Shown here: piece after piece, positions 31,988-62,889 of the stretch | Layout of the letters: each line of letters begins with the position of its first letter | How positions within the stretch are numbered: the stretch's first letter is position 1 | NCBI GenBank assembly: GCA_027493935.1 | Contig: JAOSJV010000010.1 | Coordinates: 547,930 to 611,929 of the forward strand | Reading direction: 5' to 3' | Source of the DNA: Burkholderiales bacterium | Lineage (GTDB): Bacteria; Pseudomonadota; Gammaproteobacteria; Burkholderiales; SG8-39 | Length of the DNA stretch: 64,000 nucleotides | Made by a program: the position numbers and the translations under genes | The notes under the pieces: model-generated | The model's database searches: none | What the model was told of the DNA's origin: nothing | The model's input: the letters and a program-made list of their open reading frames with translations, nothing else

Positions 31988-31996
31988 GAATAGACC

Positions 31997-35077: not shown

Positions 35078-35157
35078 GCGGGCCTCCTACTGCCGGTCGT
35101 GAAGAAGCGCTCGGACAATGAGGACCTTATGGTAGTGACTCGGTCGCCCCGCGAGCC

Positions 35158-46702: not shown

Positions 46703-47564
46703 AGATCGACGTGTAGCCGCCCGACCAGTCCGGCGGGAGCAGGCACGGCCGCGCGTCGTGGTGCGCCCACTCCGCGCGCTTGCCGCGGATGATCGCCTGG
46801 TCCTTCGAGGAGCGGATCGGGTTCGCGGTGTACGGGAACGCGTCGGCCGAGCTGAGCGTGTAGAGGAGCAGCGGTCGGCCGAGGTCCGACAGGTTGCGCG
46901 CCGAGTAGTGCAGCGTGCGGCAGTTGTGCAACGTGAGCGAGCCCGCCGGCCCCGGCAGCGCCACCGCTTTCCACGTGTCGAGCCTCGCGGCGTCCTCGGC
47001 GCGCAGGCAGCCGATCCAGCGCCCGTCGCGATCGTACTGCGTCGGCATCGGCTCGACGAGGTGGCTCTTCGGCAGCACCTGCAGCGGCCCCTGGTCCATG
47101 TCGCAGTCGTAGATGTAGGTGCCGACGGTGATCGGCGAGTAGTTCGTGTGCGGCCAGAACGAGATGTCGTAGTGCCACTTCACCTCCTCGCCGCCCTGCG
47201 CCCACTTGAAGTTGAGCTTCGAGTGGTGGAACTTGACGTCGGGCCCGACCAGATCGGCCACGATATCGCCGATGGTCGACTGCGTAACGTAGTCCCAGTA
47301 GGCCGGATGCTGGTCGACCGGTGCCGACACCCGGCGCAGCCGCGGCGCGTCGGGCCGGTGGCCGGGCTCGAGGTCCCAGACGGCGTCGGACTTCGTCACC
47401 CTGCGGCTGCGCTCGACGAGCTCGTCAGTCGCCGCGCGCAGGCGCCCGATCCACTCCTCCGGCAGGATCTTCTCGAGCAGCAGGTAGCCCTCGGCGAAAT
47501 AGAACTCCCGCTGCGCCTGGGTCAGCACCCGGGGCGGATGGGACAGCACTTGCTCGGGCGTCAT
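46662..47564 (-). CDS. Phytanoyl-CoA dioxygenase (PhyH) family Fe(II)/2-oxoglutarate oxygenase
   Basis: Start at ATG 47564 (MTPEQVLSH). PhyH-like features are FYFAEGYLLLEKILP, WHYDISFWPH and a distal His (HNCRTLHYS). Confidence 0.75.
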   Translation of the reverse strand: MTPEQVLSHPPRVLTQAQREFYFAEGYLLLEKILPEEWIGRLRAATDELVERSRRVTKSDAVWDLEPGHRPDAPRLRRVSAPVDQHPAYWDYVTQSTIGDIVADLVGPDVKFHHSKLNFKWAQGGEEVKWHYDISFWPHTNYSPITVGTYIYDCDMDQGPLQVLPKSHLVEPMPTQYDRDGRWIGCLRAEDAARLDTWKAVALPGPAGSLTLHNCRTLHYSARNLSDLGRPLLLYTLSSADAFPYTANPIRSSKDQAIIRGKRAEWAHHDARPCLLPPDWSGGYTSIFALQQKEEDRAAA

Positions 47565-47670
47565 GTCGTGCCTCCTTGCGTTGGCGTTGTGTGCCTGCGC
47601 GCCAGCCGCCACGCTGGCGTGGCGCGCCCGGTCCTGCGAATCCGCCGCTGCCGATGGCTAGATCCAGCTG

Positions 47671-47787
47671 GAAGCTAGCTCAGAAGCGCGGCCGTGCTTG
47701 TGCGTGAACTGGGGTCGTACGAACAAGGGGCGAGCCCTTGCAAATCCCCTCTTTCGCGGTGGCATTCTCGTCTCGAGATAGGTTCTA
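47671..47787 (-). repeat. Intergenic repeat, copy B (DUF1638-PhyH spacer), inverted relative to copy A at 38394..38547
   Basis: See copy A. The repeat starts at the TAG stop codon of the DUF1638 gene (47785..47787). Confidence 0.75.
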
Positions 47788-48534
47788 CGCGGCCTTTCCC
47801 GACCGGGCGACCGGCTGCGGCGCCGGCTCGCCGCCGCGCATGAACATCTCCATCGCGAGCTCGCCGCCGGGCTCGACCACCACGAACTCCTCGTTCGCGT
47901 CGGCGACTTGCTCCGGCATCCGCACGAGCGCCTCGATGAGCGCGGTGGAGCCGAGCGTCTCCTCGCAGACGACGCCGCCGAAGCGCCGGTCCATGAAGTC
48001 GGCCACCGCCCGCGCGCGGGCGCGGTATTCGTCGAGCTCCTGCTGCGTGAAGCCGACGAGGCAGATCTTGCGGTAGTGCTTGTACTTCATCTCGAACAGG
48101 TAGTCGGCGGTCTCCTCGTCGAACTGCTCGACGTAGTCGTGGTAGTCGGCAAGCGGCTCGTCGCGCGCGTCGATCCAGCCCTTGGTGAGGTAGTAGGTGT
48201 TCGGGCTCGCGAAGAAGCGCTGCACGTAGCGCTGGTGCGAGCCGAGAAAGATCGCCACGCAGTCGTGGGTACGCGGCACGACGAGCGTGTGCGGCCCCGA
48301 CTTGACCCCGACCAGGCCGTTGCCGCACAGGCCGTAACCGATGATCACGGTGCTCGGCTCGGGCAGCGCGTCGATCTTCGCCTGTAGCGCCTCGGCGAGT
48401 TTCTTCGGCGAGTTGTGCAGCATGACGTCGAGCCATACCGAAGGCACTTCCGCCGGCAGCCGCTTGCCGAGGAGATCCTCCAGCACGGCGCACGAGATCA
48501 CGACGGTGGGGCGGGACTTGACGGCCGTGTCCAT
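47785..48534 (-). CDS. DUF1638-domain protein (family associated with corrinoid methyltransferase systems)
   Basis: 249 aa with VVISCAVLEDLL ... VIIGYGLCGNGLVG ... VPRTHDCVAIFLGS, matching my recollection of DUF1638. Confidence 0.65.
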   Translation of the reverse strand: MDTAVKSRPTVVISCAVLEDLLGKRLPAEVPSVWLDVMLHNSPKKLAEALQAKIDALPEPSTVIIGYGLCGNGLVGVKSGPHTLVVPRTHDCVAIFLGSHQRYVQRFFASPNTYYLTKGWIDARDEPLADYHDYVEQFDEETADYLFEMKYKHYRKICLVGFTQQELDEYRARARAVADFMDRRFGGVVCEETLGSTALIEALVRMPEQVADANEEFVVVEPGGELAMEMFMRGGEPAPQPVARSGKAA

Positions 48535-48546
48535 GGCGCTGGCCTC

Positions 48547-49967
48547 CTATGCTGCGCGCGGCCGCTGCGCCCCGAAGAGCGGGACGCGGCCGCCGAGAAC
48601 GCCCGATTCGGCGACGATCGAGGGTATCAGATGCTCCTGCCTGGCGGCCATGAGGTGGACGCCGGCGACGCCCGGGATGGCGCGGAGGCGCTGCACGAGC
48701 TCGATGCAGATCCGGCGCCCCTCCTCGCGCGCGTCGGCTGCACCCTCCAGGCGCGCCACGATCGTCTCCGGGATGTGCACGCCGGGCACCTTGGCGCGCA
48801 GCCAGCGCGCTGTCTTGGCCGATCCGACCGGCCCGACCCCGACCAGAATGCGCACGCGCTCGTGCAGCCCCGCCTCGCGCACGCGCGCCATGTAGCGCTC
48901 CAGCCGATCGAGGTCGAAGCAGTACTGGGTCTGCACGAACTGCGCGCCGGCACCGATCTTCTTCGCGAGCCGCACCACGCGGGCGTCGAATGGCGGCGCG
49001 AACGGGTTGTCGGCGGCGCCGAGAAAGAGCTGCGGTGCTGCGCCGAGCTTGCGCCCGGAAAGGAAACGCGCCTCGTCGCGCATCGTGCGCGCGGTGACGA
49101 GCAGCGACACCGCGTCGAGGTCGCCGACGTGCTTCGCCCCGGGATGGTCGCCGTTCGCCACGTTGTCGCCGGTCAGGCAGACCACGTTCCTCACGCCGAG
49201 GGCGGCGGCGCCGAGGATGTCGCCCTGGATGGCGATGCGGTTGCGGTCGCGGCAGGAGATCTGCATCACCGGCTCGCAGCCCGCCTGGAGAAGCAGCACC
49301 GACACGCCGAGGCTCGACATGTGGCAGTTCGCGCCGGAGCCGTCGGTCACGTTGAGGGCGTCCACGCAACCGGCGAAGGGCGCGAGCCGGGCGTGCACGT
49401 CGGCCGGATCGGCGGAGTCGGGCGGGGAGAACTCGGCGGTGACCACGAACGCGCCGGATTCCATCAGCCGCTCGAGCGCGCTCGCCGCGCGCGCGCGCGG
49501 CGCCGGCGGCGCCGCACGCGCCGCCTCGTCGCTGCCGGCGATCACCCGCAGCCAGCTCGAGCGCCCGACGAGGTTGTGCTCCACCGGCGGATTGGGCTCC
49601 GCGGGCAGCACCCCGGCGGCCATCTTCCGGCTCCCATGCCAGCCCTCGACCCAGACGCAGCGCACGTCCGGCTTCACCTCGCAGGTGCCGTCCGGCCGCA
49701 CGCCTCCGCACGGGCCGTTGCGCACCTGCTTCGGGCAGTTCATCGGGCAGGACATGCCGGTCACCGAGAGCGCGCAGCGCCCGCACATCTTGCAGTCGAA
49801 GAGGAAGCTCTTGACCGCGCGCTCGGCGGCCGCGAGCGGACGCTCGAGCCGCTCGAGGCCCATCGCCCGGGCGAGCGGCCTGAGCGCGCGCAGCGCGCCC
49901 GCGAGCGCATCGTACGCCCGCTCGAGCAGCCCTGCGTTGCGCACTGCCCACTTTCGCATGACGAGCA
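48547..49967 (-). CDS. Methylenetetrahydrofolate reductase with an N-terminal Cys-rich MetV-like domain (MetV-MetF fusion)
   Basis: Start at ATG 49967 (MLVMRKW). The N-terminal Cys-rich part reads CKMCGRCALSVTGMSCPMNCPKQVRNGPCGG. The MetF TIM-barrel part reads FVVTAEFSPP ... NVTDGSGA ... CLTGD ... FVQTQYCFD. Confidence 0.8.
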
Positions 49968-49981
49968 TGGCCTGATTCCCC

Positions 49982-51864
49982 CTAGACCGTCGCGAACGCC
50001 TCGGGCGAGGGCGCGAGCGCGGTGTGCGTGACGAAGAGATCCTGGAAGTCGAGGCGCGCCGAGAGCTCGAGCACCCGCAGCCGCTTCGCGAGCGCCGCGG
50101 CGCGCCGCCGGTGGCTCCGGCTGAAGAGCGCCATGCGCGCGCCGTCGCCCGCCGCGTTGCCGATCGAGCGGATACGCTCGACCGGGACCGGGGGACGAGC
50201 CCGATCTTGAGGATGTCCTCCGGCTCGAGATGGTTGCCGAAGGTGCCGGCGAGGTAGATGCGGTCGATCCGTTCGACGCCGCTCTCGGCGAGCAGGATCT
50301 CGATGCCCGCGCGCAGCGCCGACTTGCCGAGCTGCACGCTTCTCACGTCCTGCTGGGTGAGGACGATGTCGCGCCCGGTTCGCGTGTAGGGGGCTGCAAC
50401 GAGCACGAGCTCTTCGGCGCGACCGTTGGCCGATCCGCGCAGCTGCGGGTGCCGTCCGGCCTCCGCGAGTGCGCCGTCCTCGCCCACGATCCCGCTCGCC
50501 ACGAACGCCGCCACGCTCGAGATCACGCCGGAGCCGCACAGGCCGATCGGCCGCGGATCGCCCTTGCCGTCGGGCTCGCGGATCGCCGCCCAGCGGATCC
50601 GCCCGGACGGCTCCACCCAGGTGCGCTCGATCGCGCCGGGGGCCGCACGCACCCCGCAGCGGATGTGCGCCCCTTCGTACACCGGTCCGGTCGCGCACGA
50701 GGTTGCCGTGAGCACGCCCTCGTGCGCGAGCACGACCTCGCCGTTGGTGCCGACGTCCACCAGCAGGTGCGTGCCGCGGTAGAACTCGGCGCCGCGGGTG
50801 AGCACGGCGGCGAGCGTGTCGCCGCCGATGTAGCCCGCGATCGACGGGAACACGAACACGCGCGCGCGCGGCAGGATCTCCAGCCCGAGCTGCGCCGCCT
50901 CGGTCTCCACGCCCTCGGCCCACACCGGCAGGTACGGCCCGCGTCCGAGGGGCTCCGGATTCACGCCGAGCAGGAGGTGCTGCATCGTCGGGTTGCCGAC
51001 CGCCACCGCGTCGACGATGTCGCCGCGTGGCACGCCGGCCTCGGCCGCCGCCTCGGCGATCAGCCGGTTGAGCTCGGCCACCAGGAGCCGCCGCATCTCG
51101 GCGAGCGCGTCCGGATCCTTCTGGATGTGCGTCATGCGCGAGATGACGTCCTCGCCGTAGATCGCCTGCGGATTGCCGGCGGTGCGCATGGCAACGATGG
51201 CACCGGCCGCGAGATCGCACAGGAAGACCACGATCGAGGTCGTGCCGACGTCGATCGCCGCGCCGTAGAGCGCCTGCGCGCGGCCGCTCTGCAACCCGAG
51301 CACGCGCCGCTCCTGGTAGAGCGTCGCGGTGACCTCGCGCGCGCCGTCGAAGCCGGGCCGGGTGGAATACTCGGCCAGCACCTCCACCGGCAGCGCCACC
51401 GACTTGCGGCGCGCGGCGCGCGCGATCGCGCCCCTCAGGCGCTCGGCGAGCGTGCGCAGCGGCTCGCTATAGGCGCCGGGCACCTCCGCGCTCACCCGCG
51501 CGACCACCGGCCGCGGCTTGACCTGGGTCACCGTGTAGGGCTTGCGCGGCGCGCTGCGCACCGCCTGGCTCTCCGGCGGCACCGAGAGCGCGAGGTCGCC
51601 GCGCACCTCGCACAGGCAGGCCAGACGGTAGCCGCGCGCCTCGCCGCCTGGCGGCAGCAGCGCGCGCTCCTCGTCCGAAAGCGGCGTCAGGGCGTCCGGC
51701 GCGGAAGCCTCCGCATCCACCTCGATCAGGCAGCTGCCGCACTTCCCGCGCCCGCCGCAGACGGACTTGATGCCGACCCCGGCCTTCCACGCCGCGGCAA
51801 GCAGCCGCTCGCCCCGCCGGACTTCCGCGGCGCGCGAGTCGGGATGGAAGGTGACGCGCGGCAT
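49982..51864 (-). pseudogene. Corrinoid reductive activase (RACo/RamA-like: 2Fe-2S ferredoxin domain plus ASKHA/DUF4445 ATPase); frameshift in the G5 run 50190..50194
   Basis: Start at ATG 51864 (MPRVTFHP ... CGGRGKCGSCLIEV). The ASKHA motifs AIDVGTTSIV and LVDVGTNGEV are present. After ..EDILKIGLVP the C-terminus continues in the frame of ORF 49982..51220 (VPVERIRSIGNAAGDGARMAL...). Confidence 0.8.
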
Positions 51865-51895
51865 CGGCGATCGACCCCGGGTGCGGAACGCCTCC

Positions 51896-52696
51896 TCAGG
51901 CGGCGACGCGTCCGGCCTGGAACGCCTCGATGAACCCCATGCAGTACTCGTCGCGCCCGAACACCGCGCGTGCGGCATGCATGGCCGACACGAGCTGCGC
52001 GTCGGTCGGATCGATGATCGCGGCGTCCATGCCGCGGCTCATCGCGGCGACGAGGAAGGTGCGGTTGACGAGCTTGCGCGCCGGCAGGCCGTGCGACACG
52101 TTGGTGAGGCCGCAGATCGTGTGCACCCCGGGGTAGCGGCGCATGATCTCGCCGATCGCCTCGACGGTCACCTGCGCCGAGGCCGAGTCGGTGCCGAGCG
52201 GGAAGACCAGCGGATCGACGTAGATGTCGTCGAGCGCGATCCCCGCGCGCGTGAGCCGCTCGACGAGCTCGGCGGCGAGCGCGACCTTGCCGTCGACGCT
52301 GGTCGCGGGGGTCCCCTCGCCTTGGCAGAGGGCGACCAGCTTCGCGCGGTGCTCGAGTGCGAGCGCGAGGACGCGGTCGAAGCGCTCGCGCTCGAGGTTG
52401 ATCGAGTTGATCATCGGCGGCCGCGTCGTCAACCGCGGCAGCGCCGCGGCGAGCGCCGCCGGGTCGGGCGAGTCGAGGCACAGCGGCTTGTCGGTCACCG
52501 CCTGCACCGTGTCCACCAGCCAGGCCAGCAGCTCGGGCTCGCGTCCCGGGAAGGTGCCGCCGTTCACGTCGATGTAGTCGGCGCCGGCGGCGGCCTGGTC
52601 GATCGCCTCGCGCTGGATCGCCGCGGCGTCCATCGCCTCGAGCGCGGCGCGGATCGCCTTGCGCGAGGCGTTGATCCGCTCGGCGACGATCAGCAT
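51896..52696 (-). CDS. Methyltetrahydrofolate:corrinoid methyltransferase (pterin-binding, MT-II/CmuB/AcsE-like)
   Basis: Start at ATG 52696 (MLIVAERINASRKAIRAAL ... ADYIDVNGG ... LCLDSPD ... INSIN ... DPLVFPLGT), a DHPS-like pterin-binding barrel. Confidence 0.8.
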   Translation of the reverse strand: MLIVAERINASRKAIRAALEAMDAAAIQREAIDQAAAGADYIDVNGGTFPGREPELLAWLVDTVQAVTDKPLCLDSPDPAALAAALPRLTTRPPMINSINLERERFDRVLALALEHRAKLVALCQGEGTPATSVDGKVALAAELVERLTRAGIALDDIYVDPLVFPLGTDSASAQVTVEAIGEIMRRYPGVHTICGLTNVSHGLPARKLVNRTFLVAAMSRGMDAAIIDPTDAQLVSAMHAARAVFGRDEYCMGFIEAFQAGRVAA

Positions 52697-52698
52697 GG

Positions 52699-53784
52699 TC
52701 AGGTGTATTTCCCGTACTTCCTGATCGCGCGCGACATCGCCCAGACGTTCTCCACCTTGCAGTAGTCGGTGATGCTGTTCGCGCTCGAGATCATGTAGCC
52801 GCCGCCCTTGCCGACGCGCTCGATGCGGTCCTTCACCTCGGCCTCGACCTCGGCCTCGGTGCCGCGCGGCAGCGTGTAGTCGAGGTCGATGTTGCCGACG
52901 ATGCACACGCGCTCGCCGTACCTCGCCTTCAACTGGTTGATGTCCATCGCCGAGGGCTGCACCGGGTGGATGCCGCTCATGCCGAGCTGGACCAGCCCGT
53001 CGAGGATCGGGAACAGGTTGCCGTCGCTGTGGAAGATCCACGGCTTGCGGATCTCGTTCGCGACCATCATCTGGTAGGGCCTGAAGAACTCCTCCCACAT
53101 TTCCATGTTGATCCACGGCGCCTTGGTGTCGGCGTGGTCGTCGTTCGCCCAGATGAAGTCGAAGTCCATCTTGTTGAGATGCTGCACCACGCGCGCGGAC
53201 CACTCCGAGAAGCGGCGGTGGATCTCCTTCACGAGATCGGGTTCCTCGTACAGCATGATCGAGAACACGTCGAGCCCCATGCTCTCGAAGGTGCTCGCGC
53301 TGCCGAGCCGGATGCGCGCGAAGACCGCGTAATCCTCGCGGTACTTCGCCAGCCACTCGGCGACCTGCTCGTAGCGGCCGGGGTGGTCCGGATCGGGCAG
53401 GAAGCGGTCGAAGAGCTCGAGCGAAGCGCGGTCGGTGAGCAGCCCGCGCTTGACGTAGGTGCGCCCGGTCTTCGCGTCGGTGCCCATCTCGGCGATCCAC
53501 GGCGGCACGAAGTCGAACGTGATCCGCGTCGGCCGGTACCAGGCCTCCTTGCCGGTCTTGCCGGTGGTCTGGATCGACTGGCCGTCGGAGGCGTGCTGCC
53601 CGCTCGGAAAGTGGTAGCCGAAGCCGTCCATGCCGAGCGCGCGGCAGAGCTCGCCCGGGGTGAAGTCGGTACGCCCGCCCATGAGGCGGACCTGGATGTC
53701 CTCCTCGACGTCGTTCTCGATCCACGGCACCTGGTCGGGCTGCCCGCGCCTGAGCGCCGTCAGCACGCGTTCTCTCGGGGTCAT
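52699..53784 (-). CDS. URO-D-family (MtaA/CmuA-N-like) substrate:corrinoid methyltransferase
   Basis: 361 aa in a uroporphyrinogen-decarboxylase-like fold (RERVLTALRRGQPDQVPW ... IWANDDHADTK ... FHSDGN ... GIHPVQP). It sits between the corrinoid protein gene and the MT-II gene. Confidence 0.7.
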   Translation of the reverse strand: MTPRERVLTALRRGQPDQVPWIENDVEEDIQVRLMGGRTDFTPGELCRALGMDGFGYHFPSGQHASDGQSIQTTGKTGKEAWYRPTRITFDFVPPWIAEMGTDAKTGRTYVKRGLLTDRASLELFDRFLPDPDHPGRYEQVAEWLAKYREDYAVFARIRLGSASTFESMGLDVFSIMLYEEPDLVKEIHRRFSEWSARVVQHLNKMDFDFIWANDDHADTKAPWINMEMWEEFFRPYQMMVANEIRKPWIFHSDGNLFPILDGLVQLGMSGIHPVQPSAMDINQLKARYGERVCIVGNIDLDYTLPRGTEAEVEAEVKDRIERVGKGGGYMISSANSITDYCKVENVWAMSRAIRKYGKYT

Positions 53785-53817
53785 CGTCTGCTCCTCTCGG
53801 TCCGCGGGCGGTCGCGC

Positions 53818-54453
53818 TCAGTGCAGCATGCGGTTGCAGGTCTCGACGCAGCCGTACGCGTCCTGGCTGTAGAAATCGGCGCCGATCTCGTCGGCGAACT
53901 TCTGGGTGAGCGGCGCCCCGCCCACGCCCACCCGCACCGCCGCGCGCACCCCGGCGGCGTCGAGCGCCTCGATCGTGCGGCGCATGCTCTCCATCGTGAG
54001 CGTGATGAGCGCGCTCATCAGCACGAAGTTGGGTGTCTCGTTGGCAACCGCCTCGACGAACTTCTCCGGGCCGACATCGACGCCCAGGTCGACCACCTCG
54101 TAGCCCGCGCCCTCGAGCATCATCTTGACGATGTTCTTGCCGATGTCGTGGAAGTCGCCGGCCACGGTGCCGATCACCGCCTTGCCGCGCTTCGCGGCGG
54201 CCTCGCCCACCAGGTGCGGCTTCAGCACCGGGATCACCTCGGTCATCGCGCGCGCCGCGATCATCATCTGCGGCAGGAAGAACTCCCCGGTCGAGTAGCG
54301 CCGCCCCACCTCCGACATCGCGGCGATCAGCCCGTCCTTCATGATCGCCCCGGCGTCGACGCCGGCGGCGAGCGCGCGCCGCGCCTCCTCCGCCGCCTCG
54401 TTGCGCTTGCCGCGGATCACCCAGTCCCTGATCGCCTCGATCGCCTGCGTCAT
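53818..54453 (-). CDS. Cobalamin-binding corrinoid protein (B12-binding_2 cap plus Rossmann domain)
   Basis: Start at ATG 54453 (MTQAIEAI). It carries the DxHxxG motif GDFHDIGKNIV, SALITLTM and VGGAP. Confidence 0.88.
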   Translation of the reverse strand: MTQAIEAIRDWVIRGKRNEAAEEARRALAAGVDAGAIMKDGLIAAMSEVGRRYSTGEFFLPQMMIAARAMTEVIPVLKPHLVGEAAAKRGKAVIGTVAGDFHDIGKNIVKMMLEGAGYEVVDLGVDVGPEKFVEAVANETPNFVLMSALITLTMESMRRTIEALDAAGVRAAVRVGVGGAPLTQKFADEIGADFYSQDAYGCVETCNRMLH

Positions 54454-54565
54454 GCCGTCCTCGCCTCCCCCGTCCGCGCGCCGGATGGCGCGCTGGTATG
54501 TAACTGATATATTACGCGCCGGGCCGGGCGTCATCAACCGCTTTCTGCCGCGCGTTTGATCGGCA

Positions 54566-55993
54566 TCAAGCGTCGCCGGCCGGCGGATGGTGCGCTGCGT
54601 CATCGGGGGCGGTGCGGTCGGCGCCCGTCCCGCGCACGCCGGTCCGGGTCAGTGCACCGGCCGCGCCGAGCTGCGCGCCGTCCTGGTTGAGGCGAGCACG
54701 GAGCTCCTCCCCCCGGAGGGCGCGCGGCTCGCAGCCGGCCTCGATGCACATGGCCGCCGCGTGGCCGACCGCGTGGCCGTAGGCGAAGCACTGCGCGGTC
54801 ACCCGTGCCGACGCGACCGCCTCGTGCTCGGCCGAAAGGCAGCGGCCGGCGAAGAGCAGACCCTCGCCGCGCGCGGGGACGAAGCATCCGTAGGGCACCT
54901 CGTACCAGTCGTCGAGCAGCCATTCGACCCGCGGCCTGGCCCCTGCGTGCAGCTCGATCGGCCAGGGCGAGCGCGCGATCGCGTCGGCGAACTTGGCGCC
55001 GCGCACGACGTCGGCGTTGGCGAGCAGCGCGACCCCGCGGCCCTGGCGCGTCTGGCGCACCCCGACCTGCACCCCGGTGTCGTTGACCCAGCTCGCCTCG
55101 CAGCCGGCAAGGTGGTCGCGGAAGAAGCGCGCGTACTCGCGCACCTGGCGCCGCCCCGCCGTCTCGGCCTCGGTGAAGTCGGCGGCGTAGAGCGTGTTCA
55201 GCTCGCGCCCGTCGGGGCCGACCACCCGCGTGCAGTTGCACAGGAGCTCGCCGGGTCGCGTGGTCGTGAACAGCCAGATCTTGGCGCGCGGCAACGCGTA
55301 GCCCTTGCCGTCGTGCCGGCGCAGGAGCGCCGACACTTCCTGCGGCATGATCGTGTCCGCGCCGTAGGCCCGCAGGAACCGCGCGGTATCGACCCCGCCG
55401 AGACGGAAGATCATGGTCGGGTTCTGCACCCTGCCGTCGTCGCCGACGAGCGACGGCATCCCCGCCATTGCCAGCACGTCGGCGTCGCCGCTGGCGTCGA
55501 TCGTGATCCGGGCGCGGATTGCGAGCTTGCCCTGCTTGGTAGAGGCGACGAGCCCGCACACGCGGTCGCCGTCGACCAGCGCCTCGGTCACGGTGGCGTG
55601 CAGAAAGACGCGTACGCCGGCCTCGCTCAGGAGATGATCGGCGGCCTCGCGCCACACCAGCGGATCGTGCACCCGCGTGAAAGTCTTGCCGTAGCGCACC
55701 GGCGGCGTGATCCCGCCGCGGCGCTCGAGCAGGCGCACGAATTCGTCGGCGAATCCGAATACCACCTGCTCGGGATGCGCGTGCGGGCGGTCGCTCGCCG
55801 CGTAGAGCCCGCACACGGTGCCCGACATTCCGGCCACCGCGCCGCCGCCGCAGAAGCCGTAGCGCTCGACCAGCACGACGCGCATCCCCCGGCGCGCCGC
55901 GGTGACCGCCGCCGCCACGCCCGCGGCGCCGCCGCCGGCCACCGCGACGTCGGCGTCGATCGAGATGCCGGCGCGCAGGTCGATCGGTGTCAT
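54566..55993 (-). CDS. FAD-dependent oxidoreductase (FAD_oxidored/PF12831-like)
   Basis: 475 aa with an N-terminal dinucleotide fold (DVAVAGGGAAGVAAAVTAARRGMRVVLVE). Confidence 0.7.
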   Translation of the reverse strand: MTPIDLRAGISIDADVAVAGGGAAGVAAAVTAARRGMRVVLVERYGFCGGGAVAGMSGTVCGLYAASDRPHAHPEQVVFGFADEFVRLLERRGGITPPVRYGKTFTRVHDPLVWREAADHLLSEAGVRVFLHATVTEALVDGDRVCGLVASTKQGKLAIRARITIDASGDADVLAMAGMPSLVGDDGRVQNPTMIFRLGGVDTARFLRAYGADTIMPQEVSALLRRHDGKGYALPRAKIWLFTTTRPGELLCNCTRVVGPDGRELNTLYAADFTEAETAGRRQVREYARFFRDHLAGCEASWVNDTGVQVGVRQTRQGRGVALLANADVVRGAKFADAIARSPWPIELHAGARPRVEWLLDDWYEVPYGCFVPARGEGLLFAGRCLSAEHEAVASARVTAQCFAYGHAVGHAAAMCIEAGCEPRALRGEELRARLNQDGAQLGAAGALTRTGVRGTGADRTAPDDAAHHPPAGDA

Positions 55994-56027
55994 GACGAGG
56001 CCCGCGTCCGATGCGGTGCGCGGCGGC

Positions 56028-57350
56028 CTAGTTGAAGCCGAGCAGCTTGCTCGGCAGCCACAGCACGGTCTGCGGGAAAGCCATCACGATCGCGAGCGTC
56101 AGCGCCTGCAGCAGGATGAACGGCACCACGCCCTTGTACATGTCCAGCAACGTGATGGAGGGCGGCGCGATGCCGCGCAGGTAGAAGATGGCCGGCGCGA
56201 GCGGCGGCGTGAGGTAGCTCGTCTGGATCACGATCAGGAACAGGATGCAGAACCAGACCGGGTTGAAGCCGGCGCCGTTCACCAGCGGCATGAAGATCGG
56301 GATGAAGATCAGCAGGATCGAGATCCAGTCGAGCACGAATCCGGCCAGGAACGCGAGCCCGAGCAGCAGGAAGAGCAGCGCCCACGCGTGCAGGTCGAGG
56401 TAGGTGACGAGCTGGTTGGTGAGCGCGATGCCGCCGGCAGCGAAGAAGACCCCGGTGAAGATCGTGCCGCCGAGCAGGATGCCCATGATCATCGAGGTGA
56501 TGCGCAGCGTCTTCATCACCGAGTCCCTGAGCATCGCGAAGTTGAACCGGCGGTAGAAGAGCGTGAGCAGGATCGCGCCGAAGGCGCCGAGCGCGGCGGC
56601 CTCGGTGGGCGCCGCCCACCCGAACATGATCGAGCCGAGCACCGCGAAGATCATGAAGAGCGGCGGCACCAGCGCATGCGCGGTGACGCGCAGCCGCAGC
56701 GCGAGCGGCGGATCGTCTGCCCCCGGCGGGATGCGCGGTCCGGCCGCCGGCCGGATCACGCACAGCAGGAAGATGTAGAGCACGTAGAGTCCGGCCATGA
56801 TCAGGCCGGGAAAGATCATTCCCACCAGCAGGTCGCCGACCGAGACGTTTGCCACCGGCCCGAGCACCACCACCACCACCGACGGCGGGATGATGGTGCC
56901 GAGCGAGCCGCCGGCGCAGATCGTGCCGCAGATGAGCGGCTTGTTGTATGCGTATTTCAGCATCACCGGGATCGCCAGCAGCCCGACCACCGTCTCGGTC
57001 GCGCCGATCACCCCGGTCGAGGCGGCGAAGATCACGCACATGATCACGGTGCCGAGCGCCAGCCCGCCGGGCAGGCGCCGGGTCCACAGATGCACCGCCT
57101 CGAAGAGTGCCTCGGCGATGCCCGAGCGTTCGAGCATGGTGCCCATGAACACGAAGAGCGGCACCGCGGCCAGCACGAAATTCGAGCCGATGTCCTCGAT
57201 CTTCTCCATGAACTGGAAGATCACGGCGCCCTTGAAGACGAGAAAACCGAACAGGAGCGCGGTGCCGGCGAGCGCGAACGCGACGTGCACCCCCAGGAAG
57301 ATGAGCACGAACATCGCCGCGATCATGAAGATCGGCAGCAGCTCGCTCAT
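56028..57350 (-). CDS. TRAP transporter large permease (DctM family)
   Basis: Start at ATG 57350 (MSELLPIFMIAAMF). Polytopic protein of about 440 aa, DctM-like. The start overlaps the DctQ-like stop codon (ATGA). Confidence 0.88.
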   Translation of the reverse strand: MSELLPIFMIAAMFVLIFLGVHVAFALAGTALLFGFLVFKGAVIFQFMEKIEDIGSNFVLAAVPLFVFMGTMLERSGIAEALFEAVHLWTRRLPGGLALGTVIMCVIFAASTGVIGATETVVGLLAIPVMLKYAYNKPLICGTICAGGSLGTIIPPSVVVVVLGPVANVSVGDLLVGMIFPGLIMAGLYVLYIFLLCVIRPAAGPRIPPGADDPPLALRLRVTAHALVPPLFMIFAVLGSIMFGWAAPTEAAALGAFGAILLTLFYRRFNFAMLRDSVMKTLRITSMIMGILLGGTIFTGVFFAAGGIALTNQLVTYLDLHAWALLFLLLGLAFLAGFVLDWISILLIFIPIFMPLVNGAGFNPVWFCILFLIVIQTSYLTPPLAPAIFYLRGIAPPSITLLDMYKGVVPFILLQALTLAIVMAFPQTVLWLPSKLLGFN

Positions 57351-57865
57351 CGCCGTGCCCCCGGAGCGGAGCGGCCGGTGAGGACCAGGTAGCAGCGGAT
57401 GAGCTGTGCGAGCCCCTGCAGCGCGAGCAGCACGAACGCCGTGCACATCACCAGCCGGAACGGCCAGATCACCGGATTGAAGGCCGACATACCCGAGCGT
57501 TCCTGGCTCGCGTAGGCCTTCACCACCTTCTCCCAGAAGCCGATCGAGAGCCACACCGCCAGCGGCAGCAGCAGCACGACGTAGGTGAAGGTGTCGATCA
57601 GCGCCTGCGCCTTGCGCGAGGCGCGCGCGTAGAAGAGGTCGACGCGCACGTGCTCGTTCTCGCGCAGAGTGTAGGCGAGCCCGATCAGGAAATGGGTGCC
57701 CATCACCAGGTAGCCGACTTCGAAGGCCCACAGCGTCGGCTCGCCGAGCACGTAGCGCGAGAACACCTCGTAGCAGCTCGCCGCGATCAGCGGAATGACG
57801 AGCCAGGCCGCGACGGCCCCGGCGGAGCCGCTCACGCGGTCGAGAAAGCGCAGCAGCGGGATCAT
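57347..57865 (-). CDS. TRAP transporter small permease (DctQ family)
   Basis: Start at ATG 57865 (MIPLLRFLDRVSG). About 172 aa with four TM segments. Confidence 0.8.
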   Translation of the reverse strand: MIPLLRFLDRVSGSAGAVAAWLVIPLIAASCYEVFSRYVLGEPTLWAFEVGYLVMGTHFLIGLAYTLRENEHVRVDLFYARASRKAQALIDTFTYVVLLLPLAVWLSIGFWEKVVKAYASQERSGMSAFNPVIWPFRLVMCTAFVLLALQGLAQLIRCYLVLTGRSAPGARR

Positions 57866-57975
57866 GCGCGAGGCGTCATGCGCGGCGCGCCGCGGCGCGG
57901 TGCGGTTGCTGCCGCGCGCGGGCAAAAAGAAAACCGGCCGGCGCGCGGCTCGCCGCGGCTTCCGGCCGGCGCCGG

Positions 57976-59049
57976 TCAGGCCTGCCTGACCTTCACGTTG
58001 CGATAGCGCGGCGCGTCCTTCCAGAGCGCCTCGAACTCGCGCTGGCTCTTCACCACCTTGTCGAACCAGGCGTTGCCCGCCCGCACCTTGTCGGCCCATG
58101 CGATTCCGCGCTCGCGCGCCGCGTACTGCACGTCTGGATCGAGCTCGATGATCTCGTTGCCGCTCTTGCGGAAGAACTCGAGCGCCTTGGCGTCCTCCTG
58201 CCCGATGCGCGTGAAGGTCTCGTAGGTGACGAGCTTTGCCGTGAGCTCGACGAGCTTCTTGTCGCTCGCGGAGAGCTTCGCCCACACGTCCTTGTTGATG
58301 CACAGCTCGAACGGCGCGGTGGGCTGGTGCACGCCCGGGATGATCAGGTACTTCGCGACCTTGTAGAAGCCGGGCGTGATGTTCTCCCACAGCGTGCCCC
58401 ACTCGGTTGCGTCGATCACCCCGCGCTCGAGCGCGGGGTAGATCTCGCCGCCCGGGGTGGTCACCGGCGAGGCGCCGAGCTCCTTCGACATCTCGATCCA
58501 CGCGCCGGCGGTGCGCAGCTTGAGGCCTTTCAGGTCGGCGAGCGTCTTGACCGGCTTGCGCGAGTGCAGGAAGACCTCGGCGGTGCGGATGAACAGCGGC
58601 AGCGAGACGATGCCGAACTTCTCGTCGCGGAACTGGCGCTGCAACTCCGCCCCGCCCGCCTCGTAGATCCAGTGCAGCATGTACTCCGAGTTGAAGCTGC
58701 CGGCGTACCCGCCGAAGGCCACCGTGGTCGGGTCGGCGCCCCAGTCGTAGCCCATCCAGGTGTGGCCCATCTCGGCGACGCCGTTCTTGACGGTCTCCGA
58801 GACCTTGAGCGCGTTGCCGAGCGCGCCGCCGGTGAACACCTGCACCTTCATGCGCCCGCCGGAGAGGAAATCCAGCCGCTCGGCGAAGGCCTTCGCGCCG
58901 ATGTCCATCAGCGGCCCGCCCGACCAGGCGGTCGCCATCTTCCAGCTGTAGCTCGGCCCGCCCTGGGCGCGCGCCGGCACCGCCGCAGCGGCGGCCGCGG
59001 CAGCCGCCGCCGACAGCGCACCGGCCTTCAGAAACTCGCGTTTTCTCAT
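57976..59049 (-). CDS. TRAP transporter substrate-binding protein (DctP family) with a Tat-type signal
   Basis: Start at ATG 59049 (MRKREFLKAGALSAAAAAAAAAAVPARA). DctP-like body, 357 aa. Confidence 0.88.
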   Translation of the reverse strand: MRKREFLKAGALSAAAAAAAAAAVPARAQGGPSYSWKMATAWSGGPLMDIGAKAFAERLDFLSGGRMKVQVFTGGALGNALKVSETVKNGVAEMGHTWMGYDWGADPTTVAFGGYAGSFNSEYMLHWIYEAGGAELQRQFRDEKFGIVSLPLFIRTAEVFLHSRKPVKTLADLKGLKLRTAGAWIEMSKELGASPVTTPGGEIYPALERGVIDATEWGTLWENITPGFYKVAKYLIIPGVHQPTAPFELCINKDVWAKLSASDKKLVELTAKLVTYETFTRIGQEDAKALEFFRKSGNEIIELDPDVQYAARERGIAWADKVRAGNAWFDKVVKSQREFEALWKDAPRYRNVKVRQA

Positions 59050-59092
59050 TGCCTTCTCCTCCTTGGGGTGGTCAGATTCTGGTGCCGGGGAA

Positions 59093-59917
59093 TCACGCGG
59101 CCCGCGCAACGGCGCCATCCTGCCCGGCGGTGCCCGGCGCGTCGTTGATGTACCTCTCCATTTTCGCGCGCAGATCGGGCTTGACGTGCTTCATGCCGTA
59201 GCCGTTGAAGAGGTGCCCGAGCAGGCCGCGGTCGAGGTCGCTCGTGCGCATGATCCAGTCGGCGATCGGGAAGGTGAGGTTCATGTTGATATCCATCATG
59301 ATGCCCTGATTGTGGTGCACCGTGTGATGGCGCCGGATGGTGTTGACGAACGGCACATAGCGCACGAACCAGTTGTCGTGCACGTGGCAGCAGTAGTGGA
59401 AGGTCTCGTAGATCAGGTACTGGGCGACGATCGTCACCATCAGGACGTAGCCCACGTTTGGATTGATCAGCCAGCCGAGCAGGAGCGCGAACGGCGTGCC
59501 GAGCGCCATGAACGTGAACAGCGCGCGCCACGGGAAGAAGATTATGCGCCATTCGCGCGTACTGTCGACCGTCATCTCGTTGTCGGTGAAGTACTGGTGG
59601 TGCTGCCGGGTGTGCCGGTCGTAGATCGCCCGCAGCGCCCAAACGTCCACCAGCCGGTGCATCACGTTCTTGTGGATCCACCACTCGAAGAGGTTCGAAG
59701 CGACGAACACCGGCACCACCAGCAGCCACTCCCAGGTGGGGTTCTGCATCCGGCTCACGCACCAGGCGATCACCGCGATCCCCACCGCGTAGATCACGCC
59801 GATGTGCACCGGGCCGTTGTACAGGGGGTGCACCTGCGACATGTACTCGCCGCGGAAGCGGCGCTGGCGCTCGCTCATCGCGTGGCGCTCGACCAGGGTG
59901 TCTCCGAGCCGTGCCAT
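59093..59917 (-). CDS. Fatty-acid-hydroxylase/sterol-desaturase-family membrane di-iron oxygenase
   Basis: It carries histidine boxes HKNVMH, HTRQHH and HHTVHH with hydrophobic segments. The start could also be an internal Met. Confidence 0.75.
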   Translation of the reverse strand: MARLGDTLVERHAMSERQRRFRGEYMSQVHPLYNGPVHIGVIYAVGIAVIAWCVSRMQNPTWEWLLVVPVFVASNLFEWWIHKNVMHRLVDVWALRAIYDRHTRQHHQYFTDNEMTVDSTREWRIIFFPWRALFTFMALGTPFALLLGWLINPNVGYVLMVTIVAQYLIYETFHYCCHVHDNWFVRYVPFVNTIRRHHTVHHNQGIMMDINMNLTFPIADWIMRTSDLDRGLLGHLFNGYGMKHVKPDLRAKMERYINDAPGTAGQDGAVARAA

Positions 59918-60091
59918 TGCTGTCTCCTTGCGTCTGCGCGGCGCGCAACCGCCTGCGCGGCGGCCGGACCGTCGTCTGATATGTCACACGTATATTTTTG
60001 ACGACCATTGTCGCGCCGTGCAGCGCGAATTTCAAGCCGTCCGCGCGCCGCCCGATGCTGCGCTGCGGCATGGGTTGCGCGCCGTGCGGGC

Positions 60092-62022
60092 TCAGTGCCG
60101 CGCGCCCGCGCCCTCGGCCACCAGCCGTTTGGCGAGGCGAACCGCCTCCACCGCATTGGCGCCGTACCCGTCGGCGCCGATCTTCGCCGCGAACTGCTCG
60201 CTCACCGGTGCGCCGCCAACGATCACGCGGCAGCGGTCGCGCAGTCCGTTCGCCTCGAGCGCCTTGATGATCTCGCCCATCTCGACCATCGTGGTGGTGA
60301 GCAGCGCCGACAGGCCGAGCACGTCGGGCGCGAAGGCCGCCACCTCCTCGCAGAAGCGCTCGCGCGCGACGCTCACGCCGAGATCGCGCACTTCGAACCC
60401 GACCCCGCGCAGCATGGTCACCACCAGGTTCTTGCCGATGTCGTGCATGTCGCCGCGCACGGTGCCGACCAGCACCTTGCCGCGCTGCTGCTCGCCGCTC
60501 GCGGCGAGGTGCGGCTCGAGCATCTTGACCGCCGCGGTCATTGCCCGCGCGGCGAGCAGCACCTCGGGAATGAACGCCTCGCCGGCGGCCATGCGGTTGC
60601 CGACGACCGAGATCGCGGCGATCAGTCCGTGCTCGAGGATGTCGGCCGCGCGTGTGCCGCGGTCGAGCAGCTCCTGCACGTGCGCCCGGATGTCGACGTG
60701 GCGGCCCTTGAAGACGTCCTGCCGCACCTGCGCGAAAGCGTCGTCGGCCGCGCCCGCGGCCTGCGCCGCCGCCGGCGCGCGCGCCGCCGGCAGGGTTTCC
60801 AGCGTGCGCGCAGCGCCCGCCTTGAGCGGCAGCGCCCCCTCGCGCGCGATGCGCTCGCCGATGCGCTGCAGGCGCGAGAAGATCGCGTTCGGCGGCACCT
60901 CGTCGGCGACCCCGACGACGAGCCGGTTGCCCGGCGCCACGGCACGGAAAAACCCGTCGAGGTAGGCTTCGAAGTCGGCCTCGCTCGTCTCCGCGAGTAC
61001 CACCGTCGACGGGATGCCGCCGTAGAGGGTGAGCCGCGGGCTCCAGTGTCGGTAGTACTCGGCGAAGGTCACGCGCGTCATCGGTGCCGGGCAGATCGAT
61101 TCGGCGACGTGCATCCCGGAGTCGCGAATCAGGTCCATCAGCCCGCGGTTCTCGCCGTCGGTATGGCACAGGAGGAGCTTGCCGGCGCCTTGCATCGCCG
61201 CGGCCGCCTTGCGGATCCACGGCTGGATCTCCTTCTCGAAATAGGGCGGGAAGGTGAGCATGTCGTCGAAATTCGCCCCCACCAGACGACCTCGGCCGGC
61301 GATTGGGCGAGGATCGCGATCATCTTGTCCATCAGCGGCGCGATGCGCTCGGCGAGCCCGCGCATCTCGGCGTAGTGGTCCTTGTAGTGGATGAAGAACT
61401 GCGTCTGGTCGCTCAGGTCGCGCTGGATCAAGTGGAACGGCGAGGCGTCGAGCGAGCCGATCGCGATCGGCAGTCCGTCCTCGCGCATGTCCTCGGCCGA
61501 CCAGCGCCGGAAGCGCTCGAAGTTCGGCACCACGTCCATGTGCTCGAACAGGTACCCCGCGGGCGCATAGTCGGCGGGCGTCTTGATCAGGTGCTCGGCC
61601 AGTGCGGGAATGGTGATGCCGTTCATCTGCGACTCGACGTCGTAGTGCGTAACGGTGCTCACCATGCCGAGCGGCGTGTGGTACTCGACGCGCGTGCGCG
61701 CTCCGCTGCGCGCGATCTTGACCTCGACGTCCTTCGGCAGCACGACGTCGAACACCGTGTCGCGGCTGTAGAACACGTTGATGCCGCGGTGCAGGTAGAG
61801 CGGCTGGAAGGCCGCATCGAGCTGGTCGTCGCAGAAGCGGTGGTGCAGGGCCCAGCCCTCGGCGAGCGCGATCTCGCGCATCGCGCGGCCCGCGTGCGCG
61901 CGCGGCAGCGTGCCGGCGGTCGCGTTCGCGAGATACCATAGATCGAGACGCGGCACGTACGGCAGCTGATCGACGGTCTCGCCGCGCAGCGCCGCGGAGA
62001 TGCGGGCCCTGTTCGTGTACAT
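60092..62022 (-). pseudogene. CmuA-like two-domain protein: URO-D-type methyltransferase fused to a cobalamin-binding domain; frameshift in the C5 run 61276..61280
   Basis: Start at ATG 62022 (GGAGGAG upstream; MYTNRARISAAL...). The N-terminal part in ORF 61138..62085 runs to ..AEVVWWG. The continuation ANFDDMLTFPPYFEKE ... is in ORF 60092..62047. The C-terminal B12 domain carries GDMHDIGKNLV, SALLTTTM and VGGAP. Confidence 0.8.
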
Positions 62023-62080
62023 GGTTGGTCTCCTCCGGACGCGGCACCGGCCGGCCCCGCGAAAGCCTGGGTCGATCGCT

Positions 62081-62099
62081 GACATACTAGACGTATGTC
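62081..62099. promoter_or_regulatory. Perfect 7-5-7 palindrome GACATAC-TAGAC-GTATGTC upstream of the CmuA-like gene (candidate operator)
   Basis: The inverted repeat lies about 60-75 nt upstream of the ATG at 62022, in the divergent spacer. Confidence 0.3.
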
Positions 62100-62447
62100 T
62101 GCGGCTGCGTCCACAGCCGCGCGCGGTTTCTTGACGCGGATCACAGCCTGCGGCACCGGTCTCGGCGATCCGGGGCCGGGAAGCCTGGACCTGCCCGCGC
62201 TAAAGTAGAATCGCGGGGCTGGCGGCAACACCGCGGGCGCACGGATGCAGGCGACGCGATGCTGACGGTGAGCGCCGCCAGCGATCGATGCCGCCGCCTA
62301 GTATGTTCCGCGCCGCATGGCGTTCTTCGGGCAGTTGCCGGAGAGCGCCATGGGAATGATTCTGAAGGCGGAGCTGCGTCGCGCGTACGGTACCCCGGCG
62401 CGGCTCGCCGACTGACCGACGCACCGATCCTGGAAGGAGAGCCGGAC

Positions 62448-62864: not shown

Positions 62865-62889
62865 AGCCGCGCGCGCGGAGACGAGCAGC

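Follow-up and report, generated by a model that had tools for sequence, protein, structure and literature searches.

Corrinoid-dependent demethylation is textbook biochemistry in anaerobes and, to our knowledge, only two cases of it are known in aerobes, those acting on chloromethane and on glycine betaine. The described systems with which the present locus can be compared are the O-demethylases of Acetobacterium dehalogenans (OdmABCD) and Desulfitobacterium together with CdmBCA (PMC13222342), CmuA/CmuB of Methylorubrum extorquens CM4 (plasmid pCMU01), the split methionine synthase/glycine betaine system of Roseobacter (PMC5764234, PMC12478193), and MtsA/MtsB and MtpA/MtpC of methanogens with the clostridial mlp clusters (PMC10418091). 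Here we analyse a stretch of 64,000 nucleotides from an uncultured Burkholderiales bacterium of soil or freshwater (GenBank assembly GCA_027493935.1, contig JAOSJV010000010.1, positions 547,930 to 611,929 of the forward strand; hereafter the window, numbered from its first letter), which carries a minus-strand gene island with two candidate substrate methyltransferases (MT-I), two corrinoid domains, a methyltransferase to tetrahydrofolate (MT-II; THF), a RACo-type activase, an importer and oxygenases. We favour, at a probability of roughly 0.6, the reading that the island is a cobalamin-dependent MT-I/corrinoid/MT-II/RACo demethylation system feeding THF, set inside an O2-dependent cluster for small carboxylates, with a donor that is most likely O-methylated. 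It would be a third kind of corrinoid demethylation in aerobes, and a widespread one, in which Co(I) chemistry is encoded side by side with oxygenases that require O2.

An earlier note on this DNA, made from its letters and ORFs (open reading frames), had listed ten components of a complete methyl-transfer island between 47785 and 62022. Pfam and NCBIfam profile searches, with inspection of start codons and motifs, confirmed all ten on the minus strand, at or near the places where that note had put them:

60092-62022, minus strand: methyltransferase-corrinoid fusion, with a URO-D-superfamily methyltransferase domain at about residues 1-400 and a PF02607/PF02310 corrinoid domain
61148-61165, minus strand: HTDGEN motif of the fusion (motif scan)
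60434-60451, minus strand: DMHDIG motif of the corrinoid domain of the fusion (motif scan)
59093-59917, minus strand: membrane di-iron hydroxylase of the FA_hydroxylase/sterol desaturase family (FAH; Pfam PF04116 and three His boxes)
57976-59049, minus strand: DctP of a tripartite ATP-independent periplasmic (TRAP) importer (Pfam)
57347-57865, minus strand: DctQ of the same importer (Pfam)
56028-57350, minus strand: DctM of the same importer (Pfam)
54566-55993, minus strand: PF12831 FAD-dependent oxidoreductase, hereafter the flavoprotein (Pfam, 401 bits)
53818-54453, minus strand: stand-alone corrinoid protein with cap and Rossmann domain (Pfam PF02607 and PF02310, NCBIfam)
54139-54156, minus strand: DFHDIG motif of the stand-alone corrinoid protein (motif scan)
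52699-53784, minus strand: stand-alone URO-D-superfamily methyltransferase, MT-I candidate (Pfam URO-D, 75.5 bits)
53017-53031, minus strand: HSDGN motif of the stand-alone URO-D protein, where MtaA has HICGN
51896-52696, minus strand: methyl-THF:corrinoid MT-II, Pterin_bind (Pfam; NF005719, 302 bits against a cutoff of 259)
49982-51864, minus strand: RACo activase with Fer2, Raco_middle and RACo_C_ter (Pfam)
48547-49968, minus strand: MetV(DUF5981)-MetF(MTHFR) fusion (MetVF), methylene-THF reductase (Pfam, NCBIfam)
47785-48534, minus strand: DUF1638 protein (Pfam, E 2e-37)

Both methyltransferase domains were placed by profile comparison. The N-terminal domain of the fusion had no Pfam match above threshold in the window, weak URO-D matches were found in 27 of 30 relatives, and hhalign aligned the fusion N-terminus with the stand-alone URO-D family at 98.4% probability (E 7e-15), HTDGEN falling on HSDGNL. 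By this alignment the two are paralogous domains of the URO-D superfamily. When folds were searched with the model of the whole fusion (pLDDT 70.7), matches of the B12 domain dominated and gave no information on the N-terminal domain, for which hhalign was used instead. The AlphaFold2 model of the stand-alone URO-D protein (pLDDT 89.7) found MtaA (4ay7) as its best fold match, with a TM score of 0.72-0.76 and ahead of UroD. Its only sequence relatives among solved structures were CdmB (best, E 1e-11) and then MtaA, and in NCBIfam it met only methylcobamide:CoM/MtaA/CmuA-type models, at 47-56 bits against cutoffs of 235-400, with no hemE model among these matches. Its gene is flanked by those of a corrinoid protein and an MT-II in every locus examined. 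The URO-D proteins are corrinoid-methyltransferase-like members of the superfamily and not haem enzymes; true uroporphyrinogen decarboxylase (HemE), the identity that the earlier note had set against its own proposal, is rejected because no hemE model was among the matches listed and MtaA outranked UroD in the fold search.

The zinc ligands of the known enzymes were traced through the same alignments. HICGN of MtaA aligns to HSDGN of the stand-alone protein and the second cysteine of MtaA (GCG) to SANS, whereas H-T-C of CmuA aligns to H-S-D of that protein, and the fusion has HTDGEN. Judged by these motifs, both domains are without the zinc-thiolate site and present H-[S/T]-D-G where MtaA and CmuA have H-x-C. 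The fusion had been described as CmuA-like, which holds for its domain order, methyltransferase then corrinoid in one polypeptide, confirmed here as that of CmuA. It does not hold for the methyltransferase domain, since in tblastn and hhalign comparisons with CmuA only the B12 domain aligned (31-37% identity) and the N-terminal domain did not, and the zinc motif is replaced. The fusion had no match to TIGR01463 (MtaA/CmuA) and the stand-alone protein reached 47 bits against its cutoff of 235; hhalign placed the latter on the CmuA N-terminus with 93.5% probability and 22% identity.

Both families are widespread. At E ≤ 0.001 the full fusion as a query retrieved 1,307 proteins, a good many of which match it only in the B12 domain, and the stand-alone methyltransferase 872. 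The N-terminal half of the fusion retrieved 404 representative clusters, and many of these are unfused proteins about 400 residues long. The closest fusion relatives (64-92% identity) are in metagenome-assembled genomes (MAGs) of Burkholderiales/Betaproteobacteria and those at 43-53% in MAGs of Desulfobacterota, Dehalococcoidia and Thermoleophilia; database annotation of the fusion relatives is only "corrinoid protein", and close relatives come almost all from uncultured bacteria of soil, groundwater, sand filters and lakes.

The other components support the scheme that had been proposed for the island, that is, MT-I, corrinoid protein, methyl-THF MT-II and RACo, with MetF and fhs for oxidation of the C1 (one-carbon) unit. 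Both corrinoid proteins have the DxHxxG base-off/His-on motif, a B12-binding cap and a Rossmann domain, the MT-II scores above the NF005719 cutoff, and the activase combines a 2Fe-2S Fer2 domain with ASKHA ATPase domains (Raco_middle, RACo_C_ter) and matches the NCBIfam AcsV/RamA-type models below cutoff. As the earlier note had seen, the island holds two MT-I/corrinoid modules, one MT-II and one activase, and we infer that the latter two serve both modules. A DUF1638 protein and a RamA-like protein are needed for B12-dependent methionine synthesis in Phaeobacter and are induced on methylated osmolytes in Ruegeria (PMC5764234, PMC12478193). By genetics and proteomics in these aerobic Alphaproteobacteria, DUF1638 is implicated as a partner of RamA-like activases in B12 reactivation, a role that by analogy the island protein may share; no relatives of DUF1638 were found in the solved-structure search. 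The gene fhs is a possible C1 outlet. No homolog of the homocysteine-binding PF02574 was found in the window.

The genes were examined for integrity, since the G+C content of the window (about 69%) gives rise to many spurious ORFs. By codon-position G+C, an array of co-directional minus-strand genes runs from about 62,022 down to about 40,373. One frame change each was found in RACo (1-nucleotide deletion in a C run, 50189), in the fusion (1-nucleotide deletion in a G run, 61275) and in fhs (about 42990), every one at a C or G run, and the protein-cluster library contains a 294-residue truncated product of the frameshifted fusion gene. However, the Logan metagenome contig L001 (14.4 kb) differs from window positions 49241-63621 by 0 substitutions and 5 homopolymer lengths and carries unbroken fusion (643 residues) and RACo (627 residues) genes. 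The frameshifts in these two genes are therefore probably assembly errors, and the fusion, RACo and fhs are taken as functional genes in what follows. Programmed frameshifting was rejected, as all 5 differences to L001 are changes of homopolymer length and 3 of them lie outside RACo and the fusion. Single-base homopolymer indels lie at 50189, 61275, about 42990, 62983, 57924 and 54467, and probably also within 31997-35086; RACo, the fusion, fhs and a molybdopterin oxidoreductase gene are frameshifted by such indels. An Rfam scan of the whole window disclosed no riboswitch or other RNA, and promoter and terminator scans gave nothing exceeding shuffled expectation.

The array continues on the same strand past 47785, where the earlier note had placed its start, and the following genes were added there:

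46662-47612, minus strand: PhyH-family Fe(II)/2-oxoglutarate dioxygenase, beyond the range noted earlier (Pfam)
45638-46702, minus strand: APH-family kinase, weakly MtnK-like in NCBIfam (Pfam)
44346-45641, minus strand: enolase (Pfam; NCBIfam eno equivalog)
44000-44330, minus strand: remnant of a PrpB/PEP-mutase-superfamily gene, about 110 residues, between enolase and fhs
42247-43921, minus strand: fhs, formate-tetrahydrofolate ligase, frameshifted at about 42990 (Pfam)

We retrieved 80 loci encoding fusion relatives and mapped the island proteins onto them. In the close set, made up of 27 loci whose fusion shares 60% identity or more (several being truncated contigs), FAH was adjacent to the fusion in 20, and an orthologous DctP, a PanB paralog that passes the panB equivalog cutoff and a GntR/FCD regulator were present in 19 each. 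URO-D was found in 11/27, the flavoprotein in 10/27, PhyH in 10-15/27, a BHMT-like homocysteine S-methyltransferase in 8/27 and fhs in 4/27, plus the locus L047. Two modules emerged from this comparison, module A (PanB and GntR where present, fusion, FAH, DctPQM, flavoprotein and PhyH) and module B (corrinoid protein, URO-D, MT-II, RACo, MetVF and DUF1638), and in some genomes they are separated. In three loci (L023, L024 and L026) a second fusion paralog (63-65%) stands with a CUT1 sugar-type ABC transporter, LacI and another PhyH, with no TRAP genes, a context that hints at a family of related substrates. An Amidohydro_1 protein adjoins MetVF or RACo in L019, L025 and L026; on pCMU01 of M. 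extorquens CM4 (L097), too, cmuA has an amidohydrolase-family gene directly downstream.

Plasmid p1 of Azospirillum brasilense Sp7 (L098, NZ_CP012915.1 1078733-1099461) carries an orthologous cluster with no corrinoid gene, consisting of DUF6166, FAH, alpha/beta hydrolase, PrpB-like lyase, iron-containing alcohol dehydrogenase (Fe-ADH), DctPQM, PhyH, GntR, kinase and enolase, with identities to the island of 72% (DctP), 73% (DctM), 70% (PhyH), 60% (enolase), 56% (kinase) and 54% (FAH), and of 66% for GntR. There the PhyH ortholog directly follows DctM, while in the window the flavoprotein and module B sit exactly between DctM and PhyH, followed by kinase, enolase and the PrpB-like remnant. Judging from this gene order, the corrinoid system has been placed inside an older O2-dependent catabolic cluster. 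Other parts of the cluster occur in Methylobacterium nodulans ORS 2060 (pMNOD02, L092, 272616-293362), with flavoprotein (73%), GntR (57%), a major facilitator superfamily (MFS) transporter, FAH (52%), DUF6166 and a plasmid-borne PanB paralog that is 84% identical to the MAG PanB, again with no corrinoid genes in the set, which adjoins a Liv-type ABC transporter, a CoA-transferase and an enoyl-CoA hydratase. Cupriavidus campinensis has GntR followed by Fe-ADH, MFS and FAH (60%), and variants are present in Halomonas, Hydrogenophaga and Indioceanicola, one of them being DctP (72%), PhyH, an IlvD-like dehydratase and the flavoprotein; the DctP of Indioceanicola is 72% identical to that of the window. 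What had been taken as unusual redox partners of methyl transfer thus belongs to a separable cluster that stands without corrinoid genes in cultured bacteria.

Kinase and enolase are probably the downstream part of this oxygenase/TRAP cluster, because the same pair follows PhyH-GntR in A. brasilense and is present in L022 as well. A phosphonate cluster made up of enolase, PEP-mutase-like protein and kinase was considered and rejected, as the PEP-mutase-like piece is a short remnant and the enolase a bona fide eno equivalog; an intact counterpart of the remnant lies in the A. brasilense cluster (L098 12081-12926).

The stand-alone URO-D protein spreads independently and is unusually conserved between phyla. 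Its orthologs (64-69% identical) occur in MAGs of Syntrophorhabdales, Chloroflexi, Rhodospirillales and Deltaproteobacteria (contigs L085-L091), behind Liv-type ABC importers in 4 of the 5 loci examined. Most of these loci also have a corrinoid protein, MT-II, MetVF, DUF1638 or RACo, and a GntR/FCD regulator is present in four. GlcDEF glycolate oxidase, DmpFG/MarR/CoA ligase and a UGSC-family protein are neighbours in one locus each. NCBIfam gave no informative subfamily name for the GntR regulators or the Liv-type solute-binding proteins.

The best solved matches of DctP were 2hzk (TakP), 2zzv (lactate), 5cm6, 7ug8 (ketoacid) and 4pet, with E values of 1e-32 to 4e-40, and its scores against TakP, lactate and ketoacid binders were well above those against uronate or sialate binders. 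This bears out the carboxylate-type importer put forward earlier and suggests that DctP belongs to the TakP/lactate/pyruvate/ketoacid-binding subgroup, with a small alpha-substituted monocarboxylate as predicted ligand. FAH reached 36.4 bits in Pfam (cutoff 31) and has the HX4H, HX3HH and HX2HH boxes (HKNVMH, HTRQHH and HHTVHH) and four hydrophobic segments, read from the sequence. The FA_hydroxylase family includes methyl oxidases (ERG25) and the ether-cleaving alkylglycerol monooxygenase, and by analogy FAH may hydroxylate a methyl or methoxy carbon. Its product could conceivably be an alcohol, passed to the neighbouring dehydrogenases or to PanB working in reverse (hydroxymethyl to methylene-THF), or else free formaldehyde. 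The nearest solved structures of PhyH were EctD, EvdO2 and GriE; the solved-structure searches gave no relatives for FAH and no close structure for the flavoprotein.

On these grounds the methyl donor is predicted to be a small carboxylate, since DctP is nearest to TakP, lactate, pyruvate and ketoacid binders; enzymes of short 2-oxo and dihydroxy acids (PanB, KARI, IlvD-like, PrpB-like, MmgE/PrpD, kinase and enolase) recur as partners. We prefer an O-methyl donor because the methyltransferase domains are without the thiol-type zinc site and nearest to the O-demethylase/Cdm group. Within that choice a small aliphatic methoxy acid is our tentative candidate and an aromatic one seems improbable. 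That methyl groups flow from donor to THF is suggested by the importer, by MetVF and fhs, and by the regulator of catabolic type found in relatives. The TRAP system would import a small methylated carboxylate of the 2-oxo or 2-hydroxy type or similar, most likely an O-methyl (methoxy) acid, and each methyltransferase domain would pass the methyl group to Co(I) of its own corrinoid partner, from which the single MT-II would transfer it to THF. MetVF would convert methyl-THF into methylene-THF, fhs would release or take up formate, and RACo with DUF1638 would re-reduce the Co(II) arising in an oxygen-exposed cell. The hydroxylase, PhyH, flavoprotein, kinase and enolase, and in most relatives the PanB paralog, would process the carbon skeleton, and the hydroxylase might be an alternative, O2-dependent demethylase of the same compound (methyl or ether alpha-hydroxylation).

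Several points weigh against this reading. Substrate and activities are predictions from sequence, neither methyltransferase family having a characterised member. A TRAP ortholog 72% identical serves organisms without a corrinoid methyltransferase, so the methyl donor may be a compound other than the imported one, or the imported one may do without B12 chemistry. Unless activated by a Lewis acid, aliphatic methyl ethers donate poorly to Co(I), and neither domain has an established metal site. The direction of methyl flow is drawn from the context of importer, MetVF and fhs only. Two key genes are frameshifted here and, if the frameshifts were genuine, this strain would carry a decaying island. 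Finally, PanB, GntR and a homocysteine module are missing from the window, although the PanB-GntR pair is present in most relatives; its position is occupied by a pair divergent from the fusion gene on the plus strand (62259-64000), an FlK-type (fluoroacetyl-CoA-specific-like) hotdog thioesterase and a molybdopterin oxidoreductase that extends beyond the window end.

A bolder proposal, which we consider doubtful, is that facultative Burkholderiales joined two chemically unrelated routes, O2-dependent di-iron and O2-independent Co(I) demethylation of one small methoxy or methyl acid, collecting all C1 units on THF, as methyl-THF through MT-II and as methylene-THF through the PanB paralog run in reverse. 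The FAH route stands alone in cultured Azospirillum, Cupriavidus and Methylobacterium, which are aerobes, the corrinoid methyltransferases stand alone in MAGs of Desulfobacterota, Syntrophorhabdales and Chloroflexi, and both occur together in Burkholderiales MAGs. This distribution suggests that FAH and the corrinoid methyltransferases might be isofunctional oxic and anoxic routes. Were this true, the island would represent an unrecognised, environmentally widespread C1-harvesting pathway and a new class of substrate for corrinoid methyltransferases.

Other donors have to be weighed against the small aliphatic methoxy acid. A facultative or aerobic counterpart of the acetogen and Desulfitobacterium O-demethylases, acting on methoxylated aromatic acids such as vanillate or syringate, would account for the zinc-free URO-D-type MT-I, a hallmark of the phenyl methyl ether O-demethylases, to which the nearest solved sequence, CdmB, is related. 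It would also fit the URO-D orthologs in Syntrophorhabdales, an order of aromatic-compound degraders, and beside DmpFG, MarR and a CoA ligase in a Rhodospirillales MAG, as well as those behind Liv-type importers, a class that includes binders of benzoate derivatives. However, genes for ring cleavage or ring hydroxylation were found neither in the window nor in the conserved neighbourhood, the partners that recur act on short aliphatic 2-oxo and dihydroxy acids (PanB in 19/27, KARI, IlvD-like, PrpB-like, MmgE/PrpD, enolase) and the binding protein is nearest to the TakP/lactate/pyruvate type, so that we hold an aromatic donor to be improbable. Chloromethane dehalogenation of the Cmu or Cdm kind is hardly credible: the domain order of the fusion is that of CmuA, metF and C1-THF genes are close by as in pCMU01 and CdmB is the nearest solved sequence, but the N-terminal domain of the fusion cannot be aligned to CmuA, the TIGR01463 cutoff is not reached, the H-x-C motif is replaced, and a dedicated TRAP importer with a GntR/FCD regulator would be senseless for a gas. 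A biosynthetic direction, in which MetVF-derived methyl-THF loads the corrinoid through MT-II and the URO-D protein methylates an acceptor, as a split methionine synthase or a small-molecule methylase, is very improbable. Corrinoid protein, MT-II, RamA-like activase and DUF1638 are indeed the core of the Phaeobacter/Ruegeria split methionine synthase, 8 of the 27 close loci have a BHMT-like homocysteine S-methyltransferase in the vicinity of the fusion, and MtaA and MetE of the URO-D clan are methyl-to-thiol transferases; nevertheless, the window has no homocysteine-binding PF02574 gene, the URO-D domains are without the zinc site needed to activate a thiol acceptor, and the tight coupling to importers, GntR/FCD catabolic regulators and fhs fits catabolism.

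Demethylation of an S-methyl donor, be it dimethylsulfoniopropionate, 3-methylmercaptopropionate, 4-methylthio-2-oxobutyrate or dimethyl sulfide (DMS), with the sulfur then oxidised by Sox, is quite improbable too. URO-D-family enzymes use S-methyl donors in methanogens (MtsA; also MtpA, bioRxiv 10.1101/548461), a TakP-type binding protein would suit a 2-oxo acid such as 4-methylthio-2-oxobutyrate, sulfonium donors require no metal activation, soxYZAXB is present in the genome, and a cobalamin-dependent DMS methyltransferase had been proposed with no enzyme assigned. The earlier note had described that proposal accurately and had offered the island as a sox-linked candidate for it: a methyltransferase route in Thiobacillus ASN-1 was put forward by Visscher & Taylor 1993, and the enzyme was still unidentified in 2019 (PMC6548844). 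But both methyltransferase domains are without the His-Cys-Cys zinc site of the thiol-type MtaA/CmuA enzymes, neither a methanethiol oxidase nor a thiol dioxygenase was seen in the window, and none of the conserved partners (PanB, PhyH, kinase, enolase, IlvD-like and PrpB-like enzymes) takes part in the known organosulfur routes. The soxY, soxZ, soxA, soxX and soxB-like genes (1193-5641, plus strand) follow moaC and lie more than 42 kb from the island, behind unrelated genes for TPR proteins, signalling proteins, a secretion ATPase, oxalate catabolism and a Tct transporter, and no sox homolog was found within 10 kb in any of 92 related loci. Since sox is distant and not conserved, the zinc-thiolate site is missing and the system is built around solute importers, with a TRAP system unnecessary and unfit for a neutral volatile such as DMS, the island is a poor candidate for the source of the long-sought DMS methyltransferase, and that question it leaves unsolved.

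Between sox and the island, the minus strand carries two further groups of genes. At 31562-35086 a short Formyl_trans_N ORF, PurU/PurN-like and possibly truncated by an indel, adjoins oxalate-type genes for a thiamine pyrophosphate (TPP) decarboxylase and a formyl-CoA-transferase-like CoA_transf_3 protein. The single ORF at 31997-35086 joins the TPP enzyme (oxalyl-CoA decarboxylase-like) to the family III CoA-transferase and is probably an artefactual fusion; these genes could serve formate/C1 handling or be a 2-hydroxyacyl-CoA lyase system. The stretch 17844-30638 is rich in signalling genes, namely those for a GAF/HD-GYP-type protein, a GAF-MshEN-T2SSE ATPase, a rhodanese/cNMP-binding protein, two CHASE2 proteins (one a Ser/Thr kinase) and a PP2C phosphatase.

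Our literature search found no paper describing the island or its cluster in Betaproteobacteria, and nothing on DUF6166, the Azospirillum cluster or B12-dependent demethylation of methylated sugar acids. Identification of the substrate would give a function to two unannotated methyltransferase families, a sterol-desaturase-like clade and a clade of PF12831 flavoproteins. The carbon skeleton is experimentally accessible, as the B12-free half is present in cultured A. brasilense Sp7, M. nodulans ORS 2060 and C. campinensis MJ1.

Compared with the O-demethylase and Cdm systems, the island has the same URO-D-fold MT-I without obligatory zinc, an MtbC/MtgC-like corrinoid protein with DxHxxG, a pterin-binding MT-II to THF and a RACo-type activase. 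It differs in that the relationship of its URO-D protein to CdmB is remote, the C-terminal third alone aligning, that one methyltransferase is fused to a corrinoid domain, that DUF1638 and MetV-MetF belong to its own array, that its host is a Burkholderiales bacterium with O2-dependent oxygenases around the system, and that its partners point to a small aliphatic acid and not to an aryl methyl ether or haloalkane. With CmuA/CmuB it shares aerobic proteobacterial corrinoid methyl transfer to THF, the methyltransferase-then-corrinoid order and nearby C1 genes of the metF, folD and purU type; yet the likeness in sequence is confined to the corrinoid domain, CmuA retains H-x-C where the window proteins do not, and the Cmu system is without importer, hydroxylase and PhyH. 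The Roseobacter system (MtgC, RamA-like, DUF1638) likewise combines corrinoid protein, pterin methyltransferase, activase and DUF1638 in an aerobe, with a corrinoid carrier common to several modules, and a BHMT-like enzyme is near some relatives of the island. There, however, the substrate methyltransferase is of the MttB superfamily (MtgB), in the island of the URO-D superfamily, and the window is without the homocysteine-binding module. MtsA/MtsB, MtpA/MtpC and mlp belong to the zinc-dependent MtaA branch and to strict anaerobes, and the mlp clusters are without a THF methyltransferase, whereas the window proteins are without the zinc site and accompanied by MT-II and MetVF; mlp as the family of the island was rejected on these grounds. 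The clusters of A. brasilense p1 and M. nodulans pMNOD02 share an orthologous FAH with the island, along with TRAP, PhyH, kinase and enolase (p1) or flavoprotein, GntR and PanB as in its relatives (pMNOD02), but within 10 kb they are without corrinoid protein, methyltransferase, activase and MetVF, and they have DUF6166, Fe-ADH, PrpB-like lyase and alpha/beta hydrolase in addition.

Taken together, profiles and motifs place the island by mechanism in the known class of corrinoid methyltransferase systems and outside the CmuA, MtaA/Mts, HemE and split-MetH families, since it lacks defining features of each. What is new in it is the two uncharacterised methyltransferase families, the fusion, the host, which is an uncultured member of the Burkholderiales, and the physical integration with a di-iron hydroxylase, a 2-oxoglutarate dioxygenase and a flavoprotein and, in most relatives, with a PanB cluster.

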